From IMG/VR virus record IMGVR_UViG_2526164646_000008, positions 1-32,339 of that record: a DNA stretch of 32,339 nucleotides, one strand, 5' to 3'. Shown here piece by piece: positions 4,242 to 20,073 of the stretch. Numbering within the stretch: position 1 is the first letter of the stretch; each line of letters opens with the position of its first letter. Under the pieces are notes generated by a model, which did no database searches, had not been told where the DNA came from, and saw nothing but the letters and a program-made list of their open reading frames with translations. Origin of the DNA: a virus (taxonomy: Duplodnaviria > Heunggongvirae > Uroviricota > Caudoviricetes). The translations under genes and the position numbers were made by a program.

Positions 4242-4937
4242 TTAATCTACTTTTGCAATACTTTGCTTTGAAAATGCCGCTTTTTGTTCTGAACGTGTTC
4301 TCATCACAAACAATAAAGCCTCACTATCCAGTCGGTGAAAAATGTGTTTCATTACAACCCAGTGACCAGTAAATGTTTTGGACCAGTTTTTGGTTGTTAC
4401 TCCCGCCAGTAATGCCAGCTCCTGATATTCATAACCTTCCCCACCAAAAAGTTCTGCTTTTACCGCCTGCGCCGCCAGCCAGATTAATTTTTTCAGGCGT
4501 TCCTGTGTTTTCTCTGCAATTTTCCTAGTGCCAGAATGAGCCTTAAACTCTTCCCACGCCCAGTGGGTTATGGTGATCTGATACTCCCAGCAAATACTTC
4601 CGCTGTAACACCACAACAACCAGGCTTTATAGTGCTCTTCAAGAGACAGAACAGCCCGCCGCCACGATGATGTCGAAAACGCAACCTGACTGACCAGAGG
4701 AATTGACGCCCCCTTCGCCAGTGATTGTTTTCCCGGGATTGGTGGATTATCCCGCGTTATCATTTTTCCGGTCACCTCATCGCGGTACCGGATTTTTTTA
4801 CGCCTGTAACGCCCTGTATCGAACATGGCATTCTCCTGCCAGGCTTCAAGCTGACCTTTTGTCGCCCCACTCAAATCAGCGGTGGCGATAATGAGCTGCT
4901 CACGAACAAACTGTAAATACTGGTTATTCATGCACAC
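4242..4937 (-). CDS. Putative late-gene antiterminator (Q-like, 231 aa)
   Basis: Position immediately downstream of rusA and upstream of the phage tRNA cluster, as Q in lambdoid phages; 10-nt overlap with rusA; assignment is by synteny, sequence not recognised with certainty. Confidence 0.45.
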   Translation of the reverse strand: MCMNNQYLQFVREQLIIATADLSGATKGQLEAWQENAMFDTGRYRRKKIRYRDEVTGKMITRDNPPIPGKQSLAKGASIPLVSQVAFSTSSWRRAVLSLEEHYKAWLLWCYSGSICWEYQITITHWAWEEFKAHSGTRKIAEKTQERLKKLIWLAAQAVKAELFGGEGYEYQELALLAGVTTKNWSKTFTGHWVVMKHIFHRLDSEALLFVMRTRSEQKAAFSKQSIAKVD

Positions 4938-5287
4938 TCCAGCTCTGTGATTTTTATCCCCAACCGACCACCAGGAACAGGCAGTCCGCGCACAATATTG
5001 GTTTCATCAAACTGCTCGTCGTCGATAAGCAACCCCGCATGTGTCAGTGCATCCAGTGGTGCTTTCAGGATATTGTCCAGGTCACGACGCCGCTTATCCG
5101 GTGGCTCTGCAATAATCTTTATCGCCAGTCTTCCGGACAGGCTTAATTTCAGTCGCTGCTGACGGACAATAAGCGCCACATCCCGGCGATAACGCTCACC
5201 GGCTTTTGATACAAAATATGTGCTGCCACGACGTCGCCAGTAAGTATTCACCGTCGGCGGATAAGGTAAAATAAACTCATGGCGCAT
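4928..5287 (-). CDS. rusA: Holliday-junction resolvase RusA
   Basis: 119-aa ORF with RusA hallmark ...PDKRRRDLDNILKAPLDALTHAGLLIDDEQ...GGRL..I.I.E. Confidence 0.7.
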   Translation of the reverse strand: MRHEFILPYPPTVNTYWRRRGSTYFVSKAGERYRRDVALIVRQQRLKLSLSGRLAIKIIAEPPDKRRRDLDNILKAPLDALTHAGLLIDDEQFDETNIVRGLPVPGGRLGIKITELECA

Positions 5288-5827: not shown

Positions 5828-6646
5828 ATGTGTCAGGTATTTGGTGTATCCAGGAGCGGTTATTACAACTGGGTACAGCATGAACCCTCAGACAGAAAAC
5901 AAAGTGATGAGCGGCTAAAACTGGAGATTAAGGTGGCACATATCCGCACTCGCGAAACATATGGAACCCGGCGGCTCCAGACGGAGCTGGCAGAGAATGG
6001 CATCATCGTTGGTCGTGACCGACTGGCACGTCTTCGTAAGGAGCTGAGGCTACGCTGTAAGCAGAAACGCAAGTTCAGAGCGACTACGAACCCGAACCAC
6101 AATCTGCCAGTTGCGCCAAATCTGCTGAACCAGACGTTCGCTCCTACAGCACCAAATCAGGTCTGGGTGGCGGACCTGACGTATGTTGCCACACAGGAGG
6201 GATGGTTGTACCTCGCTGGCATCAAAGATGTTTATACGTGTGAAATTGTCGGCTACGCCATGGGAGAGCGCATGACAAAAGAGCTGACAGGTAAAGCCCT
6301 GTTTATGGCGCTCAGGAGCCAGCGCCCACCTGCCGGGCTAATCCACCACTCTGATCGAGGTTCACAGTACTGCGCATACGATTACCGGGTCATACAGGAG
6401 CAGTCTGGTCTGAAAACATCAATGTCGCGTAAAGGTAACTGTTACGACAACGCTCCGATGGAAAGCTTCTGGGGAACGCTGAAAAATGAGAGCCTGAGCC
6501 ACTATCGTTTTAATAACCGGGATGAAGCCATCTCAGTAATACGGGAATACATTGAGATTTTCTACAATCGTCAGCGTCGTCACTCTCGTCTGGGGAATAT
6601 CTCCCCGGCAGCCTTCAGGGAAAAATATCATCAGATGGCTGCTTAA
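5828..6646 (+). CDS. IS600 orfB transposase (DDE)
   Basis: 272-aa track ORF, identical to copy 3 orfB and 1 aa different from copy 2 orfB. Confidence 0.85.
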   Translation: MCQVFGVSRSGYYNWVQHEPSDRKQSDERLKLEIKVAHIRTRETYGTRRLQTELAENGIIVGRDRLARLRKELRLRCKQKRKFRATTNPNHNLPVAPNLLNQTFAPTAPNQVWVADLTYVATQEGWLYLAGIKDVYTCEIVGYAMGERMTKELTGKALFMALRSQRPPAGLIHHSDRGSQYCAYDYRVIQEQSGLKTSMSRKGNCYDNAPMESFWGTLKNESLSHYRFNNRDEAISVIREYIEIFYNRQRRHSRLGNISPAAFREKYHQMAA

Positions 6647-6688
6647 AAAAGAACAAATGGTAGTGTCCGCTATTGCCAGTACACCTCA

Positions 6689-6898
6689 CAACGCCATCCT
6701 GACAAGCGTTTTATCTTCAACGGGAATGAGATATGGAAACGTGGAGAATCAACCACAGAGTATACCCGCGCACACCAGCGAACAATCAGACGACTGCGCA
6801 GACTCATCGCCAGGAAACAGTATACAGAAAAATGGTTCAGAAAATATGACACATGGAGCGCCGGATATTACGAACTGATGGCAACAAAACCATTCTGA
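6689..6898 (+). pseudogene. Orphan 3' gene fragment (69 codons, no start) reading out of the IS600 right end
   Basis: Open frame from 6689 to TGA 6896..6898: QRHPDKRFIFNGNEIWKRGESTTEYTRAHQRTIRRLRRLIARKQYTEKWFRKYDTWSAGYYELMATKPF; protein-like composition; absent from ORF track because it lacks a start. Confidence 0.4.
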
Positions 6899-6958
6899 CG
6901 TAAACGAAATTAACCATGACGCAATTAAATAAGGCAAGCCGAATACATCAGGAGGACC

Positions 6959-7147
6959 ATGAACATTTATTTCAGAATAGTTATATCACTGGCAATTATC
7001 GCATGTATTTACGGATTAATCGTTCCGGCCCTCATATCAATGAAGGATACGGTAGCAGTGATTTCTGGCTTTGCTCTGGCGTGTCTGACCCCGCCCTGCA
7101 TTTATGCCATTTATAAGGGTCTTTCTTTTTCTAAGGATAAAAGATGA
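6959..7147 (+). CDS. Small membrane protein (62 aa, two hydrophobic segments)
   Basis: Strong SD aggagga 6 nt upstream of ATG; stop overlaps start of next gene (ATGA). Confidence 0.55.
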   Translation: MNIYFRIVISLAIIACIYGLIVPALISMKDTVAVISGFALACLTPPCIYAIYKGLSFSKDKR

Positions 7148-7971
7148 AAAAAGTTATTCCTGCTTTAGCCCTTGTTCTGCTGACCACCGGACTTGTCGGT
7201 TGCGATCGCGTTGAGCCTGGTAATGTTGGCATCAAGGTAAACAAACTGGGCGACGATAAAGGCGTCGGAGAAGTGGTCGGTGTTGGGCGCTACTGGACGG
7301 GATGGAACACTGAGGTTTACATCTTCCCGACCTTCAAACAAATGAAGACCTACGATGAGCCATTCAGCTTCCAGATGAGTGACGGTACAACCATCGGCTA
7401 TCACATCGGCGTGGCCTACAAAGTTGATCCATCCAAAGTTACCACAGTCTTTCAGACCTACCGCAAAGGCGTGGACGACATTACCGACACCGACCTGCGC
7501 CAGAAGATAGCCGACGCACTCAACCGACTGGCCAGCAAAATGACCACCGACAAATTTATCGACGGCGGCAAGTCTGAGCTGCTGGATGCAGCTCTTAAAG
7601 ACATTCAGGAAGAAATGACGCCCATCGGTATTCAGGTAATGAGCCTCTCATATGTGGGTAAGCCGGAGTACCCGCCTACTGTTATCGACAGCATTAATGC
7701 CAAAGTCACGGCGAACCAGAAAACCCTGCAATGCGAGCAGGAAGTAAAACAGCGCGAAGCGGAAGCCAACATGTTGCGCGCGGAAGCTGCCGGACAGGCA
7801 GATGCGATTCGCACAAAAGCCCAGGCCGAAGCCGATGCTATTCGTTTACGCGGTGAAGCTCTGCGCCAGAACCCAAACGTTATGGAGCTGGAAGCCATCA
7901 ACAAGTGGAACGGTACACTGCCGCAATACATGACCAGCGGTGCCAACACACCATTTATTCAGGTTAAGTAA
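7144..7971 (+). CDS. Lipoprotein, probable SPFH/band-7 (prohibitin-like) family
   Basis: Signal peptide with lipobox LVGC; C-terminal Ala/Glu-rich coiled coil (AEANMLRAEAAGQADAIRTKAQAEADAIRLRGEA) typical of HflK/C-like proteins; family call from pattern only. Confidence 0.45.
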   Translation: MKKVIPALALVLLTTGLVGCDRVEPGNVGIKVNKLGDDKGVGEVVGVGRYWTGWNTEVYIFPTFKQMKTYDEPFSFQMSDGTTIGYHIGVAYKVDPSKVTTVFQTYRKGVDDITDTDLRQKIADALNRLASKMTTDKFIDGGKSELLDAALKDIQEEMTPIGIQVMSLSYVGKPEYPPTVIDSINAKVTANQKTLQCEQEVKQREAEANMLRAEAAGQADAIRTKAQAEADAIRLRGEALRQNPNVMELEAINKWNGTLPQYMTSGANTPFIQVK

Positions 7972-7978
7972 TACATAT

Positions 7979-7999
7979 GCCCGGTATTACACGCCGGGC
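7979..7999 (+). other. Hairpin gcccgg-N9-ccgggc between SPFH gene and ORF6N gene
   Basis: 6-bp GC stem seen directly; no U-tract, so probably not a strong terminator. Confidence 0.3.
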
Positions 8000-8014
8000 T
8001 GTCTGGAGATAAAA

Positions 8015-8764
8015 ATGAATACTGTAACCATCAACAACAAACAGTTTCCGGTAATCGAATATCGCGGTCAGCGTGTTGTGACGCTGGCGATGATTGATGA
8101 AGTCCACCAGCGACCGGAAGGAACCGCGCGTGCAGCATTCAACCGAAACCGTGAGCATTTCATCAGCGGTGTGGATTATGCCGAATTAGGTGCGGACGTA
8201 ATACGTACGGACCTCCCGGAAGGAACATTCTCTAAATTTGCACCATCGGGGATTGTACTTTTTGAATCAGGTTACCTGATGTTGACGAAGCCATTCAATG
8301 ACGCCCTTGCCTGGCAGGTTCAGCGCGAACTGGTTAACAGCTACTTCCGCACTCGCACACCGCTAACGGAAATCGAGATGATCGCTGCGATAGCCGCCGA
8401 CGCTGTTCGTCAACAGAAGCGCCTGAATCATGTGGAAGAACAGCTCGAAACAGTCACAGAAGCGGTGGAAACCATCAAACGCGGAAATATGCGCGCCGGA
8501 TATGTCGGTTACCGCCAGGTGGTAGCCAAAAGTGGAATGAGTGACACCAAGTGTCGGAATCTGGTGAACGCATATCAAATTCCTACAGACACCCACGAAT
8601 TCATGACTCCGGACGGTCTGTTGTCTCGCAGGGCTATCGTCGAGCTTGAGCCATTTATGGCGGCGTTCCACCAAATGATGTCAGAGGCTGACCCACGCGG
8701 CACACGCTGGTATCACCCGAAGATGGGGCTTTTCCAGGTGATCGGATGGGAGGATAAAGCATGA
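8015..8764 (+). CDS. ORF6N-domain (antirepressor-like) protein, 250 aa
   Basis: N-terminus NNKQFPVIEYRGQRVVT...NFNRNREHFISGVDY matches the ORF6N pattern FP.IE..GQRV.T....NF..N..RF.EG; SD ggaga upstream of ATG 8015 (track start 7940 is an upstream extension). Confidence 0.5.
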   Translation: MNTVTINNKQFPVIEYRGQRVVTLAMIDEVHQRPEGTARAAFNRNREHFISGVDYAELGADVIRTDLPEGTFSKFAPSGIVLFESGYLMLTKPFNDALAWQVQRELVNSYFRTRTPLTEIEMIAAIAADAVRQQKRLNHVEEQLETVTEAVETIKRGNMRAGYVGYRQVVAKSGMSDTKCRNLVNAYQIPTDTHEFMTPDGLLSRRAIVELEPFMAAFHQMMSEADPRGTRWYHPKMGLFQVIGWEDKA

Positions 8765-9330
8765 TCATCCAGTCAAAACTTATTCGCGCCGCTCTGGTGT
8801 GCGCTGCTAAAAACGACGTTCGTTATTACCTGAACGGTCTTCACATCACGCCGAAACATATTGAGGCAACCAATGGTTCCGTGGCACTGCGCATGGCTCA
8901 CGGCATCCGGACGAAGAAAAACATCATTGTCCAGTTCGAAGGGGGCGTCCCGGCCAAAGCCGAAACGACAGAGCTGATTTTTAGTAAAGAGCCGATCGCT
9001 GTTCATCGCGACCAGTTTCAGCGACGACTGTCCATTACCGGCATTAAACTGGTGGACGGTTGTTTTCCGGATTTGGATCGCATCATTCCGAAAAAGTTTG
9101 ACCGCTGTACTCACCCGGTGCTCCAGGCGGGTTACCTGAGTTATCCAGAGAAGATGTTTGGTCGTGAGCGTAAATTTATTCCCGTCCAGTTACGTCCCTC
9201 CGGTGACGGGCAAGCGGTCAGAATTCAGTTTGATTCCATCATCAACTCAATGTATGGCAATCCTGAATTTGTTGTGATGCCTTGTCGTGATCATGGCGAT
9301 TTCAACGTGGCTCAGGAGCATCCGGAATGA
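8761..9330 (+). CDS. DnaN (DNA polymerase III beta sliding clamp)-like protein lacking domain I
   Basis: Motifs DVRYYLNG, KLVDGCFPDLDRIIPK and FVVMPCR in same order and spacing as E. coli DnaN domain II-III as recalled; ATGA overlap with upstream gene. Confidence 0.5.
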   Translation: MIIQSKLIRAALVCAAKNDVRYYLNGLHITPKHIEATNGSVALRMAHGIRTKKNIIVQFEGGVPAKAETTELIFSKEPIAVHRDQFQRRLSITGIKLVDGCFPDLDRIIPKKFDRCTHPVLQAGYLSYPEKMFGRERKFIPVQLRPSGDGQAVRIQFDSIINSMYGNPEFVVMPCRDHGDFNVAQEHPE

Positions 9331-9449
9331 AAATCGAATACCAGGACGCCGCAGGAGGTGAATCAATGAGCTGGCCTGATGCAATCGTAACTCTGGGGAT
9401 GGTATTCGCAGTAGCGTTTGTTGTGTACTCGATTTGTCGATGGGGATAA
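9327..9449 (+). CDS. Micro-ORF encoding hydrophobic peptide (40 aa from ATG 9327; 27 aa from internal ATG 9366)
   Basis: MKIEYQDAAGGES-MSWPDAIVTLGMVFAVAFVVYSICRWG; SD aggaggtg 6 nt before ATG 9366; ATGA overlap with clamp-like gene stop. Confidence 0.4.
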   Translation: MKIEYQDAAGGESMSWPDAIVTLGMVFAVAFVVYSICRWG

Positions 9450-9453
9450 CCAC

Positions 9454-9696
9454 ATGTTCGCTTTGATTCAACGCGGGCAGATATACACAGACAGAGCCGG
9501 ATACCCAGTAGAAATTACTCGCAGTACTGAGCACTCAGTGTTCTTTCGGAGGATGGACGGACGTACCGGGCGAGTACGCATCGGTGAATTCAGTAGCCTG
9601 GTCGAGCATATTGACCACCTGGAATATCACAAGATTCTGGCTGAAACAGAACAAGAAAAGCACCTGAAGAAATTACGCGCAATGCAAAGGAAGTAA
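9454..9696 (+). CDS. Hypothetical small phage protein (80 aa)
   Basis: MFALIQRGQIYTDRAGYPVEITRSTEH...; SD gggga upstream; track ORF 9418 is an N-terminal extension. Confidence 0.45.
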   Translation: MFALIQRGQIYTDRAGYPVEITRSTEHSVFFRRMDGRTGRVRIGEFSSLVEHIDHLEYHKILAETEQEKHLKKLRAMQRK

Positions 9697-9699
9697 AAA

Positions 9700-9846
9700 A
9701 TGAATAAAGCGTTTGAGCTATGGGTCCACCAGCGTTACGGCAACCACTACGACCTGACGCGAGATGTTGACGGTTTCTACTGTCGTGAAATTGTGAAACG
9801 AATGTTTGAGGACTGGTGCCACTGCCGTGGGCTGAGTGTTGTGTGA
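9700..9846 (+). CDS. Hypothetical small protein (48 aa, Cys-rich C-terminus)
   Basis: ATG 9700 preceded by aggaag; MNKAFELWVHQRYGNHYDLTRDVDGFYCREIVKRMFEDWCHCRGLSVV; below the ORF-track size cutoff. Confidence 0.35.
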   Translation: MNKAFELWVHQRYGNHYDLTRDVDGFYCREIVKRMFEDWCHCRGLSVV

Positions 9847-9854
9847 GGTAATGC

Positions 9855-10019
9855 ATGGGCAATGTGATTCAACTGGCTCCCAATGAATGGGTTTGTGAAA
9901 GCGTTCTAATCGCAATTACCGGGCTCAAACCAGGCACAATTCTTCGGACCCGGAAAGAATGCTGGATGGTTGGAAGAGAGTATATTCACGTATCACCAGA
10001 CGGTAATCCAAAGCCTTCT
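9855..10019 (+). pseudogene. Excisionase-like gene, 3' end removed by IS911
   Basis: MGNVIQLAPNEWVCESVLIAITGLKPGTILRTRKECWMVGREYIHVSPDGNPKPSE then IS911-derived codons; homologous to the xis-like ORF at 22577. Confidence 0.45.
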
Positions 10020-10026
10020 GAAGTGG

Positions 10027-11195
<1,169 letters not shown>

Positions 11196-11324
11196 TGGAG
11201 CACCTGTGTTGTTCTGAGGTGAGCATATCACCTCTGTTCAGGTGGCCAAATTCAGTGTGCCACTTCAAATCTTGCCAGAGCTAGTATTGCACTGTCTGGC
11301 ATACACAATCGTTCCAGTAATCAA

Positions 11325-11847: not shown

Positions 11848-12143
11848 AAAGTGAATTTTGTGATGCGGTGAATGCGGCTGAGCGCACGCGGAACAGTTAA
11901 AAAGCGATTAGTTCCCACGTATCGGGTGGTTATGGGTTTCCCTGTATCCGGCGTTAATTGTTAACTGGTTAACGTCACCTGGAGGCACCAGGCACCGCAT
12001 CAACAAAGTTCACTTCGGTGATGAAAGGTAAGAGAAAATGTTGAATGTAGCTATTGAAAACCAGAACGGGTGGAATTATAGTGCATCTGCACCTCATAAA
12101 ACGGGGGCCGGGCGTGGAAACCCGAACGTTACTCGAGCGCATA

Positions 12144-12165
12144 GCCGCGCTGAAGCGGTTTTTTT
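12144..12165 (+). terminator. Short GC hairpin (ccgc-gctgaa-gcgg) followed by T7
   Basis: Seen directly; 4-bp stem, strong U-tract. Confidence 0.3.
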
Positions 12166-12967
12166 ATGCGTAATGCACAGCTCCATTCAAATTATGGTGG
12201 GATGTGCAGGGCAGTCGCAAGACTGGCCGGGTTCTCGAGTGACCGGTATTTCCACCCCTGTACGTCTCACCACCCTTATGGTCGTGGAAAACCTCGGTGG
12301 TGAGTTAATTAACTTATCACTCGAGGATGCCATCATGGCTACTATCCCTGCCCTTTCTCACCCTGACGTAACCATCGAAAACGGTCGCGCTGTCACTACG
12401 TCTGTTGCGGTTGCAGAGTTCTTCCACAAACGACACGACAATGTGTTACGTGCCATCGCAAATACTGAATGCTCACCTGAATTTAACGCCCTCAATTTTG
12501 AGGACGTCACCTACACCGACACCAAAGGCGAAAAACGCCCAATGTACCAAATCACCAAAAACGGCTTCGTTTTCCTGGTGATGGGCTTCACTGGGAAAAA
12601 AGCCGCTGCATTCAAAGAGGCCTACATCGCTGATGTTCGACCGCATGGAGGCAGAACTGCACCAGAATAATACCCCGTCCGCTGACAAGATGATTCCGGG
12701 TAACGGTCGCACTCTGGTTGTGCACTTCGACGAACACGGCAATATCAGATTCACCGAAACTGTTCCTGACGGTGCACTGGTCTGTACCCTGGATACTTTC
12801 CAGTTTTATCTGGAAAAACAGGGGTGGGCTCTTGTAAACCGGAGCGCAATTAAAAATATGACCGTAGAGCAGCTGCTAGACTGGCCCCCTGAATCTCCAG
12901 ACAACCAGTATCACTTATTTAAGTGATAGTCTTAATACTAGTTTTTAGACTAGTCATTGGAGAACAG

Positions 12968-13333
12968 ATGATTGATGTCTTAGGGCCGGAGAAACGCAGA
13001 CGGCGTACCACACAGGAAAAGATCGCAATTGTTCAGCAGAGCTTTGAACCGGGGATGACGGTCTCCCTCGTTGCCCGGCAACATGGTGTAGCAGCCAGCC
13101 AGCTATTTCTCTGGCGTAAGCAATACCAGGAAGGAAGTCTTACTGCTGTGGCCGCCGGAGAACAGGTTGTTCCTGCCTCTGAACTTGCTGCCGCCATGAA
13201 GCAGATTAAAGAACTCCAGCGCCTGCTCGGCAAGAAAACGATGGAAAATGAACTCCTCAAAGAAGCCGTTGAATATGGACGGGCAAAAAAGTGGATAGCG
13301 CACGCGCCCTTATTGCCCGGGGATGGGGAGTAA
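12968..13333 (+). CDS. insC: IS2 orfA (InsC)
   Basis: [56 protein letters not shown]... Confidence 0.85.
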
Positions 13334-14196
13334 GCTTAGTCAGCCGTTGTCTCCGGGTGTCGCGTGCGCAGTTGCACGTCATTCTCAGACGAACCGATGA
13401 CTGGATGGATGGCCGCCGCAGTCGTCACACTGATGATACGGATGTGCTTCTCCGTATACACCATGTTATCGGAGAGCTGCCCACGTATGGTTATCGTCGG
13501 GTATGGGCGCTGCTTCGCAGACAGGCAGAACTTGATGGTATGCCTGCGATCAATGCCAAACGTGTTTACCGGCTCATGCGCCAGAATGCGCTGTTGCTTG
13601 AGCGAAAACCTGCTGTACCGCCATCGAAACGGGCACATACAGGCAGAGTGGCCGTGAAAGAAAGCAATCAGCGATGGTGCTCTGACGGGTTCGAGTTCTG
13701 CTGTGATAACGGAGAGAGACTGCGTGTCACGTTCGCGCTGGACTGCTGTGATCGTGAGGCACTGCACTGGGCGGTGACTACCGGCGGCTTCAACAGTGAA
13801 ACAGTACAGGACGTCATGCTGGGAGCAGTGGAACGCCGCTTCGGCAACGATCTTCCGTCGTCTCCAGTGGAGTGGCTGACGGATAATGGTTCATGCTACC
13901 GGGATAATGAAACACGCCAGTTCGCCCGGATGTTGGGACTTGAACCGAAGAACACGGCGGTGCGGAGTCCGGAGAGTAACGGAATAGCAGAGAGCTTCGT
14001 GAAAACGATAAAGCGTGACTACATCAGTATCATGCCCAAACCAGACGGGTTAACGGCAGCAAAGAACCTTGCAGAGGCGTTCGAGCATTATAACGAATGG
14101 CATCCGCATAGTGCGCTGGGTTATCGCTCGCCACGGGAATATCTGCGGCAGCGGGCTTGTAATGGGTTAAGTGATAACAGATGTCTGGAAATATAG
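13291..14196 (+). CDS. insD: IS2 orfB (InsD transposase)
   Basis: 301-aa track ORF. Confidence 0.85.
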
Positions 14197-15889: not shown

Positions 15890-17314
15890 ATGAACACCGA
15901 TAAACAAGTTTACCCACTGTATTACGAAGCAAAAAATGACAAAGTAAGAAAACGTCTCGGTATTAAAGGCGGTTTTTACTGGGCTGAAGCGAAAAAATTA
16001 TCCATTGCCATCTCCCGTGGTGCTGTTGCGATTGACGATGCAGGCTACGATGAAGATGACTTTAAAAAACCTGTTCGCGTCAATTTGCCCGTTGTTGATG
16101 ACCTCCCGCCAGAAGGCGTATTTGATACGGAATTCTGCAACCGTTACGAAAAAGGCGGGGAAGATGGCATCACAATGGTATTTATCGCATCTTCTCCCTC
16201 TGTTCAGGACAAACCGGCCAGCACTGACAATACCAACGTCAACGGCGAAGACATGACAGAAATTGAGGAGAACATGCTCCTGCCAGTTTCCGGTCAGGAA
16301 CTGCCCATTCGCTGGCTTGCGCAACACGGCAGCGAAAAACCAGTAACGCACGTTTCACGCGACGAACTCCAGGCATTACACATTGCTCGGGATGAAGAAC
16401 TACCAGCTGTTACTGCCCTGGCTGTTTCCCACAAAACCAGCCTGCTCGATCCGCTGGAAATTCGCGATCTCCACAAACTGGTGCGTGATACTGACAGAGT
16501 TTTCCCTAATCCAGGCAATTCAAGCCTGGGGCTGATGACTGCTTTTTTCGAAGCATACATGGACGCAGACTACACCGATCGCGGTCTGCTGACAAAAGAG
16601 TGGATGAAAGGAAATCGTGTTTCACGCATCACGCGCACGGCTTCCGGCGCTAATGCTGGCGGCGGGAACCTCACCGATCGCGGCGAAGGTTTCGTTCACG
16701 ATCTGACGTCACTGGCGCGCGACGTAGCCACTGGCGTACTGGCTCGTTCAATGGACGTGGACATTTATAACCTTCATCCGGCACACGCTAAACGTGTCGA
16801 GGAAATTATCGCTGAAAATAAACCGCCCTTTTCTGTTTTCCGCGACAAATTCATCACCATGCCTGGCGGGATGGATTATTCCCGCGCCATCGTGGTTGCG
16901 TCAGTGAAAGAAGCACCGATTGGTATCGAGGTCATCCCCGCTCACGTCACTGAATATCTGAACAAGGTACTGACTGAAACCGATCATGCCAACCCTGATC
17001 CGGAAATCGTGGATATTGCCTGCGGTCGCTCCTCTGCCCCGATGCCGCAACGTGTAACAGAAGAAGGAAAACAGGATGATGAAGAAAAAACGCAGCCATC
17101 TGGCGCAATGGCAGATGAACAGGCAACGGCTGAAACAATGGAACCGGATGCAACTGAACATCATCAGAACACGCAGCCGCTGGATGCTCAGTCACAGGTA
17201 AATTCTGTTGATGAGAAATATCAGGAACTACGGGCAGAACTCCATGAAGCCCGGAAAAACATTCCGCCCAAAAATCCTGTCGATGCAGACAAATTACTGG
17301 CTGCCTTGAGGTAG
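15890..17314 (+). pseudogene. recE: RecE (exonuclease VIII)-like gene, N-terminal non-catalytic region only; 3' end removed by IS600
   Basis: 474-aa ORF with acidic, low-complexity stretches ([19 protein letters not shown]...) recalled from Rac RecE; stop TAG 17312..17314 lies inside an IS600 end remnant; native sequence ends at 17306. Confidence 0.5.
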
Positions 17315-17361: not shown

Positions 17362-18180
17362 TTAAGCAGCCATCTGATGATATTTTTCCCTGAAGGCTGC
17401 CGGGGAGATATTCCCCAGACGAGAGTGACGACGCTGACGATTGTAGAAAATCTCAATGTATTCCCGTATTACTGAGGTGGCTTCATCCCGGTTATTAAAA
17501 CGATAGTGGCTCAGGCTCTCATTTTTCAGCGTTCCCCAGAAGCTTTCCATCGGAGCGTTGTCGTAACAGTTACCTTTACGCGACATTGATGTTTTCAGAC
17601 CAGACTGCTCCTGTATGACCCGGTAATCGTATGCGCAGTACTGTGAACCTCGATCAGAGTGGTGGATTAGCCCGGCAGGTGGGCGCTGGCTCCTGAGCGC
17701 CATAAACAGGGCTTTACCTGTCAGCTCTTTTGTCATGCGCTCTCCCATGGCGTAGCCGACAATTTCACACGTATAAACATCTTTGATGCCAGCGAGGTAC
17801 AACCATCCCTCCTGTGTGGCAACATACGTCAGGTCCGCCACCCAGACCTGATTTGGTGCTGTAGGAGCGAACGTCTGGTTCAGCAGATTTGGCGCAACTG
17901 GCAGATTGTGGTTCGGGTTCGTAGTCGCTCTGAACTTGCGTTTCTGCTTACAGCGTAGCCTCAGCTCCTTACGAAGACGTGCCAGTCGGTCACGACCAAC
18001 GATGATGCCATTCTCTGCCAGCTCCGTCTGGAGCCGCCGGGTTCCATATGTTTCGCGAGTGCGGATATGTGCCACCTTAATCTCCAGTTTTAGCCGCTCA
18101 TCACTTTGTTTTCTGTCTGAGGGTTCATGCTGTACCCAGTTGTAATAACCGCTCCTGGATACACCAAATACCTGACACAT
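17362..18180 (-). CDS. IS600 orfB transposase
   Basis: 272-aa track ORF. Confidence 0.85.
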   Translation of the reverse strand: MCQVFGVSRSGYYNWVQHEPSDRKQSDERLKLEIKVAHIRTRETYGTRRLQTELAENGIIVGRDRLARLRKELRLRCKQKRKFRATTNPNHNLPVAPNLLNQTFAPTAPNQVWVADLTYVATQEGWLYLAGIKDVYTCEIVGYAMGERMTKELTGKALFMALRSQRPPAGLIHHSDRGSQYCAYDYRVIQEQSGLKTSMSRKGNCYDNAPMESFWGTLKNESLSHYRFNNRDEATSVIREYIEIFYNRQRRHSRLGNISPAAFREKYHQMAA

Positions 18181-18517: not shown

Positions 18518-18904
18518 TATTAGCTCCTTCTGATGCCATTCTATTTCAGGAAGGAGTGTCCGTTAAACTCAGGCTACCTCAGAGCGCTTATCCGATTTTT
18601 GATCGTATTGAAGAAATGGCATGGGCTCGTCACTACCAGCAGATCGTTCGTGAAGAAAAAGAAACGGAACTGGCGGACGACCTGGAAAAAGGTCTGCCTC
18701 AGCACCTGTTTGAATCGCTCTGCATCGACCATTTGCAACGCCACGGTGCCAATAAACAGGCAATCAGCCACGCATTTGATGATGATGTTGAGTTTCAGGA
18801 GCGCATGGCAGAACACATCCGGTACATGGCTGTGAAGTGGCACACTGAATTTGGCCACCTGAACAGAGGTGATATGCTCACCTCAGAACAACACAGGTGC
18901 TCCA

Positions 18905-20073
<1,169 letters not shown>

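Follow-up and report, generated by a model that had tools for sequence, protein, structure and literature searches.

A truncated beta-clamp homologue of prophages and phages, proposed as a free-standing peptide-binding pocket

The sliding clamp DnaN (beta) of Escherichia coli (TIGR00663; PF00712, PF02767 and PF02768; PDB 1MMI and 6AMQ) comprises 366 residues in three domains, and its dimer interface joins domain I of one protomer to the first half of domain III, in the I272/L273 region, of the other (PMC11139829). The residues of its pocket are grouped into subsite I (R152, L155, T172, G174, H175, R176, L177, P242, R246, V247, V360 and M362) and subsite II (H175, N320, Y323, V344, M362, P363, M364 and R365) (PMC11139829). 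Here we describe a 189-residue homologue of DnaN, called the mini-clamp below, which is encoded in IMG/VR virus record IMGVR_UViG_2526164646_000008 (Caudoviricetes); the whole stretch of 32,339 nucleotides that was analysed is referred to as the window. Compared to DnaN, the mini-clamp has no domain I, has lost about half of domain III together with the dimer interface, and in domain II apparently has no second helix. Its gene is found in phages and prophages and not, as is the case for dnaN, next to dnaA and recF. We propose that the mini-clamp is a selected, non-ring derivative of the beta clamp, a free-standing pocket that would bind peptides with clamp-binding motifs and act as a sponge or as an adaptor. 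Judged from sequence and modelling, this proposal deserves about as much belief as doubt.

Among the described systems, the best functional analogy is the working pocket of the monomeric mutant beta I272A/L273A, which supports no processive synthesis but has about 50 times the affinity of the dimer for the clamp-loader subunit delta (PMC11139829). Like the mini-clamp, this mutant does not close a ring; unlike the mini-clamp, it is engineered, full length and three-domained, and has no known natural role. A natural truncation is reportedly provided by beta*, a smaller, UV-inducible form of DnaN of about 26 kDa that arises from an internal start and contains domains II and III; Skaliter, Paz-Elizur and Livneh are said to have described it in J Biol Chem in 1996, and it is also said to oligomerise into a working smaller clamp. 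By this account, beta* is cut at the boundary of domains I and II, near the start of the mini-clamp (DnaN about 132-137), but keeps the whole of domain III, half of which is missing from the mini-clamp. The short phage clamps of PHROG 3007 (TheodorHerzl gp07, Pu29 orf43, and those of Serratia phage Eta and Vibrio phage PVP-XSN) belong to the same family and length class and have the same conserved blocks, but they occur in lytic or unrelated temperate phages and have other neighbours. Gp168 of a Twort-like phage (PDB 7EVP) and MuC of phage Mu (PMC12867686) are phage proteins that also deal with the beta clamp or its pocket; these are ligands or inhibitors of DnaN, whereas the mini-clamp reproduces the receptor site of the clamp. 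Finally, trimeric clamps of the PCNA and T4 gp45 type have two complete domains per protomer, which the mini-clamp does not.

The gene and its parts are given below, with DnaN residues numbered on the E. coli reference sequence from NC_000913.3.

8761 to 9330, plus strand: mini-clamp gene, ATG start, 189 residues; RefSeq WP_000586688.1, 'beta clamp domain-containing protein'; PHROG 3007
8761 to 9093, plus strand: equivalent of domain II, residues 1-111, corresponding to DnaN about 132-250; holds DVRYYLNG and KLVDGCFPDLDRIIPK
9100 to 9291, plus strand: putative equivalent of half of domain III, residues 114-177, corresponding to DnaN 312-366, with Q122 for N320, Y125 for Y323, and the strand FVVMPCR
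9292 to 9327, plus strand: C-terminal tail, residues 178-189; the predicted local distance difference test (pLDDT) value of the last block of the model is 55, and length and sequence vary across the family

A GGAGG Shine-Dalgarno sequence lies a few bases 5' of the ATG, which overlaps the TGA stop (8762-8764) of the upstream ORF6N gene (GCATGA at 8761-8764). Three blocks of the product recall DnaN: DVRYYLNG (residues 19-26; 8815-8838) is identical to DnaN 150-157, KLVDGCFPDLDRIIPK (residues 96-111; 9046-9093) has 11 of 16 positions in common with DnaN 235-250, and FVVMPCR (residues 170-176; 9268-9288) has 5 of 7 in common with DnaN 359-365. The reading frame, the three blocks and the overlap with the ORF6N gene had all been named in an earlier annotation of this DNA (the original prediction), and all are present.

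The homology to DnaN, claimed there as well, is borne out by sequence, profile and fold, and two of the checks that had been suggested, a DnaN profile search and a structure prediction followed by a fold search, recovered the beta clamp. BLASTP aligned 126 residues of the mini-clamp with E. coli DnaN at 28% identity (E 7e-8). When searched against the PDB with phmmer, the mini-clamp matched hardly anything but beta clamps, with E about 1e-3, a significance that the family profile lifted to 1e-17, and profile-profile comparison with a 67-sequence DnaN alignment gave E 1.2e-16. A scan of genome contigs yielded almost only genuine host dnaN, which served as DnaN alignment material. The AlphaFold2 model, based on a 33-sequence alignment, is confident (pLDDT 91.4, predicted TM-score 0.87), and all 47 Foldseek matches of the model in the PDB at E <= 0.001 are beta clamps. 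The PDB holds no structure of a short-form clamp, all sequence matches in it being at least 366 residues long. The match to TIGR00663 (E 1.2e-4; residues 6-115 on profile positions 136-254) scores 21.2 bits, below the equivalog cut-off of 137.65 bits. The sole Pfam match is a partial, sub-threshold one to PF02767 (17 bits vs 27), while PF00712 and PF02768 gave none in the same scan. By sequence and predicted fold, the mini-clamp is therefore a truncated DnaN homologue and not a DnaN orthologue, since it falls below the TIGR00663 cut-off and differs from DnaN in domain count and interface, agreeing with it only in the pocket.

What is kept of the clamp amounts, according to the alignments and the model, to about 1.5 domains centred on the II-III junction, in place of the two-domain fragment first proposed. 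Residues 6-116 align to DnaN 137-255, which covers domain II and the connector between domains II and III. Four strands (55-59, 69-73, 79-83 and 89-97) make up the second half of domain II in the model, and DSSP assigns no helix to the stretch that would match DnaN about 197-208, the second helix of that domain. The C-terminal module is modelled as one beta-alpha-beta-beta-beta unit, with a strand-like segment, a helix (123-133) and three strands (142-146, 153-157 and 169-172). When this module alone is compared to DnaN with hhalign, the second half of domain III (312-366) is matched at E 4.8e-7 and the first half (253-312) at E 0.12, and the preference persists without the diagnostic last strand (E 9.6e-5 vs 0.07, using a 142-sequence family alignment). 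Linear hidden Markov model (HMM) alignments run instead into DnaN 256-293, the halves of clamp domains being internal repeats. Equivalence of the module to the second half of domain III is thus favoured on sequence grounds, not proven. Whichever half it matches, domain I is absent, as had been predicted, the alignments starting at DnaN about 132-137; about 58 residues of domain III are gone, more than the 40 or so first estimated, and one beta-alpha-beta-beta-beta half is kept. On the favoured assignment, DnaN 254-311, including the I272/L273 dimer-interface helix, has no counterpart in the mini-clamp. Because domain I and the I272/L273 interface region are missing, a normal head-to-tail ring is excluded, in agreement with the original prediction.

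Every pocket residue listed above falls within the clamp parts that the mini-clamp has kept. We scored conservation as the frequency of the top residue across the 141 sequences that represent the family after clustering at 50% identity. The equivalents of G174 (100%), R152 (99%), P242 (99%), M362 (98%), L155 (95%) and T172 (93%) are the most constant, followed by those of H175 (91%), P363 (91%), Y323 (88%), R365 (84%) and N320 (72%). The top residue has a mean frequency of 0.72 in the pocket and of 0.36 outside it (Mann-Whitney p 1e-6), and of the 14 positions that vary least in the family, 9 belong to the pocket. The other highly conserved residues, D19, Y23, G26, D99, G100 and D104, flank pocket residues in sequence. 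The mini-clamp of the window is identical to DnaN at 11 of 18 pocket positions, with conservative changes at V247 (to I) and N320 (to Q); the position equivalent to V344 also departs from DnaN.

Variation among the closest homologues was observed at three places around the pocket. In 41 close relatives (>= 70% identity), which overall are under strong purifying selection, position 150 (V344 equivalent; 9208-9210) is the most variable, with G, H, A, Y, R or F; position 101 (R240 equivalent, beside P242; 9061-9063) is C, R, L, S or H, and C in the window; and position 40 (H175 equivalent; 8878-8880) is H, S, F, C or Y, and S in the window. These variable positions at the pocket rim may reflect the tuning of ligand specificity.

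The mini-clamp matches phrog_3007 over its full length (E 5.9e-65; residues 1-179 on profile positions 3-188 of 190) and is 100% identical to the product of an E. coli gene annotated WP_000586688.1 (locus L001), the identical protein being listed in 3574 assembly-index blocks. Relatives detected by tblastn occur in 217 phage records, from hosts including Salmonella, Escherichia, Klebsiella, Vibrio, Proteus and Burkholderia, and are typically 24-35% identical to the mini-clamp over about 90% of its length. Searched exhaustively with an HMM, a set of 1.8 billion representatives gave 2438 matches at E <= 1e-10; nearly all of the best 150 clusters at 50% identity are 170-215 residues long and match end to end. 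In BFVD, many phage models of 180-210 residues have TM-scores of 0.75-0.8 to the mini-clamp model, and longer phage clamp homologues, of 238-266 residues, are also found. Short relatives of the clamp are widespread in prophages and lytic siphoviruses. Over 426 pairs drawn from 54 distinct prophage alleles, the median pairwise ratio of nonsynonymous to synonymous substitution rates (dN/dS) is 0.088, which indicates strong purifying selection on the gene.

Two other identities were considered. A pseudogene or chance open reading frame (ORF) is ruled out by the dN/dS of 0.09 together with the size of the family. The RusA-like resolvase identity, which is the label of PHROG 3007, is ruled out by the lack of a PF05866 match and by the clamp fold. 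Annotations of the phage relatives vary between 'DNA polymerase III beta subunit', 'putative beta-clamp protein', 'DNA clamp protein' and 'RusA-like Holliday junction resolvase', and the wrong RusA-like label has been carried over into many GenBank phage records (H14, H18, H20 and H26, among others). The true RusA of related prophages is a separate gene, called by PF05866 in loci L165-L167 and L169, from which its counterpart in the window is assigned by position.

4928 to 5287, minus strand: presumed RusA gene

The domain II and half-domain III that the mini-clamp keeps supply the hydrophobic peptide-binding cleft of the clamp; the ring-forming parts and those lining the DNA channel are gone, and selection has kept the docking cleft. 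We infer that the protein would be made early, from the early-left operon in lambdoid phages and as an early gene in several lytic siphoviruses, and that it would bind QLxLF-like clamp-binding-motif peptides in the predicted pocket. As to its ligands and its effect on the cell, it might titrate host clamp partners off DnaN (Pol III alpha, epsilon or delta, Hda, Pol II, IV or V, MutS or MutL), or it might tether one of these partners to a phage factor. Of the roles put forward earlier, that of a decoy for clamp-binding proteins fits best, because the most conserved residues of the family are those of the peptide-binding pocket; poisoning of the host clamp is disfavoured, as the region of DnaN 254-311 is missing.

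The genes around the mini-clamp, together with intact relatives of the locus, confirm that it belongs to an accessory operon of a prophage, which in the window contains the following.

6959 to 7147, plus strand: gene for a 62-residue hydrophobic membrane protein with two helices, which opens the operon; hypothetical protein in L001
7144 to 7971, plus strand: SPFH/Band 7 lipoprotein gene (PF01145 E 6e-31; phrog_200)
8015 to 8764, plus strand: ORF6N (KilA-N-like) gene of anti-repressor type, 249 residues from the ATG at 8015 (PF10543 E 2e-12; phrog_1726 E 1e-69)
9327 to 9449, plus strand: ORF of 40 residues with one hydrophobic helix; WP_255625547.1 in L001
9454 to 9696, plus strand: DUF4222 gene (PF13973 E 2e-13)
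9855 to 10052, plus strand: excisionase (xis; DUF1233) gene, 65 residues, its 3' end apparently cut by an IS2-like insertion sequence (IS) element

In the intact relatives (L001, L168 and L170), where all these genes share one strand, an upstream part holds an S24-peptidase repressor, a helix-turn-helix protein and small ORFs, and is followed by the 62-residue membrane protein, the SPFH lipoprotein, ORF6N, the mini-clamp, the 40-residue peptide, DUF4222, a 48-residue ORF, xis and the integrase gene int. This order represents the distal portion of an early-left operon like that of lambda, and by position the mini-clamp region resembles the exo-xis/b region of lambda. Successive genes of the operon overlap by ATGA at 7144-7147 (62-residue protein and SPFH lipoprotein), 8761-8764 (ORF6N and mini-clamp) and 9327-9330 (mini-clamp and 40-residue ORF). 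The SPFH lipoprotein and the 62-residue membrane protein could possibly serve in membrane-associated superinfection exclusion or in protease modulation. In the window, an IS3 element stands between the operon and the repressor and early-promoter region found in the intact relatives, and a Q-RusA late-regulation segment abuts the operon on the other strand. The xis product has 65 residues in the window and in L166, compared to 78-84 residues, with int following, in the intact L168 and L170; no integrase gene follows xis within the window. A search of 6600 to 10100 on both strands gave no sigma-70-like promoter, where 4.1 +/- 2.0 sites were expected from shuffles. This absence fits the interior of an operon transcribed from far upstream, and leaves the expression of the window copy unexplained.

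Several observations weigh against the free-standing pocket. Within the pocket, the equivalent of R176 is V or I, that of L177 is A in this clade, and that of H175 is S in the window and S, C or F in its closest relatives. The mapping of N320 and Y323 depends on the half-domain III assignment, for which the hhalign probability is 59-93% and the linear HMM alignment differs. In DnaN itself, too, conservation is highest at the pocket residues, which lie at the junction of domains II and III, so their conservation in the mini-clamp may be partly structural. Regarding function, lambdoid phages need the host Pol III, and would themselves suffer if alpha or delta were strongly sequestered; any titration must therefore be selective. 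Canonical clamp-binding motifs (Q[LIVMA]x[LM][FLI] and the 6-mer form) are absent from 30 non-structural proteins of phage TheodorHerzl, which carries a relative of the mini-clamp, so this phage offers no obvious ligand of its own. Lastly, the operon of the window is preceded by no promoter-like site and has an IS3 element in place of its upstream region, and the mini-clamp gene may be intact there but silent.

An alternative that we consider unlikely is that the mini-clamp is a reduced but genuine processivity clamp, of which several copies (for example four, each with three beta-alpha-beta-beta-beta units, giving 12) would encircle DNA for a phage or host polymerase. The clamp fold recovered by the model and the fold searches would agree with such a ring, as would the coincidence of the N-terminus with the boundary of domains I and II, and the longer homologues of 238-266 residues could be two-domain, PCNA-like clamps. 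But half of domain III and the native interface are absent, so that a wholly new interface would be needed, and the model has only two long helices, against the three or four that would be expected along a DNA channel. Lambdoid prophages of this type encode no DNA polymerase. In favour of a ring, the lytic carriers, such as the Dhillonvirus with a mini-clamp relative, have genes of their own for Pol A, helicases and SSB, and in one Vibrio phage the relative is placed among genes of replication and recombination (methyltransferase, SSB and exonuclease). Against this, the use of a beta-type clamp is not known for family A polymerases. The relatives in two of the lytic phages are located as follows.

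L163, 4971 to 5489: gp07 of Escherichia phage TheodorHerzl (Dhillonvirus)
L162, 4989 to 5525: orf43 of Salmonella phage Pu29 (Skatevirus)

In Dhillonvirus and Skatevirus, the gene stands on the opposite strand within the structural block, alone or in a short early cluster, either with spanin and capsid genes on its two sides or ahead of the gene for the coat protein, and far from the phage genes for Pol A, helicase and SSB.

Just as unlikely, in our estimate, is that the mini-clamp is the dedicated partner of the anti-repressor-type protein encoded upstream, whose C-terminal motif would dock in the pocket and which would act with it in the regulation of lysis and lysogeny or of transcription. 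The C-terminal part of the ORF6N protein carries RWYHPKMGLF (8690 to 8745; residues about 226-244), in which KMGLF resembles the AMSLF of clamp-loader delta. A motif RWxHPx[MFV]GxF, containing KMGLF, EFGGF or AVGRF, lies about 12 residues from the C-terminus in proteins encoded upstream of position 6001 in loci L094-L137. Three types of upstream protein with different N-termini have this C-terminal motif in common directly before the mini-clamp, which suggests that module and clamp travel together, and T4 and Mu offer a precedent in late transcription through clamp-binding activators (PMC2988020 and PMC12867686). However, the motif contains no Gln, and two of the three types (EFGGF and AVGRF) lack the Leu of the LF anchor. 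At least five other types of upstream gene are without the motif, as the lytic-phage relatives are without such a neighbour, and the loci with the motif are all closely related enterobacterial prophages, in which plain synteny may explain the association. The overlap of the ORF6N and mini-clamp genes, which speaks for the pair at first sight, is weak evidence for a specific two-protein complex, since ATGA overlaps are a general trait of this compact operon. The translational coupling originally proposed is thus common to the operon and not peculiar to this pair. The AlphaFold2 model of the ORF6N protein has a mean pLDDT of 41, the available homologues all being >81% identical. As a separate observation, a fourth type of upstream protein ends in ...DLKSLFGEKK, in which KSLF also resembles the AMSLF of delta.

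We give clearly less credit to the possibility that the mini-clamp is a decoy against a clamp-directed toxin or defence effector, or is itself a trigger or inhibitor of defence. The toxin SocB of Caulobacter, which is said to bind DnaN through a motif resembling clamp-binding motifs, would be an analogy for such an anti-toxin decoy. The pocket is conserved, positions 150, 101 and 40 at its rim are hypervariable among close relatives as at interfaces shaped by an arms race, and the gene stands among accessory genes (SPFH lipoprotein and small membrane proteins). On the other hand, the unstructured tail has many variable sites as well, neither the mini-clamp nor its three neighbours had a match in PADLOC-DB, and no known defence system acting via the beta pocket was found in the literature searched. 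Least probable of all is a poison subunit that would co-assemble with host DnaN monomers and block ring closure or loading: DnaN homology and the beta-sheet edges presumably exposed where neighbouring domains are missing would favour it, but both sides of the native interface, that of domain I and that of the I272/L273 half of domain III, are absent and conservation is concentrated on the pocket, not on the sheet edges.

Beyond the operon, the window holds the following features.

5828 to 6646, plus strand: IS3-family transposase orfB, directly upstream of the operon
10027 to 11231, minus strand: IS2-like element overlapping the 3' end of xis
12038 to 12670: Rha/Ash regulator
13291 to 14196, 17362 to 18180, 18869 to 20073, 21861 to 22529 and 31184 to 32002: further IS3- or IS2-family transposase genes
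15890 to 17314: RecE-like Exonuc_VIII gene
20134 to 21294: AAA_24 gene
24810 to 28234: sitABCD-like metal transporter (ZnuA-like periplasmic binding protein, ABC ATPase and two ABC-3 permeases), amid prophage and IS remnants
28435 to 29058, minus strand: DUF4376 gene resembling tail-fibre assembly genes, after the sitABCD-like transporter

IS elements cut several of the prophage remnants, including Q/RusA, Rha/Ash, the RecE-like gene and AAA_24, and the top database match of the ORF6N protein is named from Shigella flexneri. The pattern of IS elements and the database names point to a degraded prophage remnant of Shigella flexneri type.

No functional study of the short phage clamp family was found in the literature searched, where leads on recombination directionality factors of serine integrases, on retron Eco2 and on defence systems in general proved to have no bearing on it, and in this respect the novelty claimed by the original prediction stands; the identity is not new, as RefSeq, PHROG 3007 and phage records already name a clamp. 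With the clamp identity already in databases, it is the pocket-only reading that seems to be new. As a practical by-product, the 'RusA-like' label of PHROG 3007 needs correction. At the beta pocket, which is both a hub and a target of antibiotics, polymerases compete with the clamp loader, Hda, and the enzymes of mismatch repair and translesion synthesis. Extended to the family, our proposal is that several phage groups (lambdoid prophages, Dhillonvirus, Skatevirus/Jersey-like phages and Vibrio phages) copy the docking site of this hub as a sponge or adaptor, with the rim residues tuning the choice of partner; from alignments and models, we place this wider claim somewhat short of an even chance. 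If true, the mini-clamp would be a ready minimal scaffold for the study or screening of pocket ligands, and it would give phages a new way to take over the host or hijack the replisome, by copying the receptor site instead of blocking the hub.

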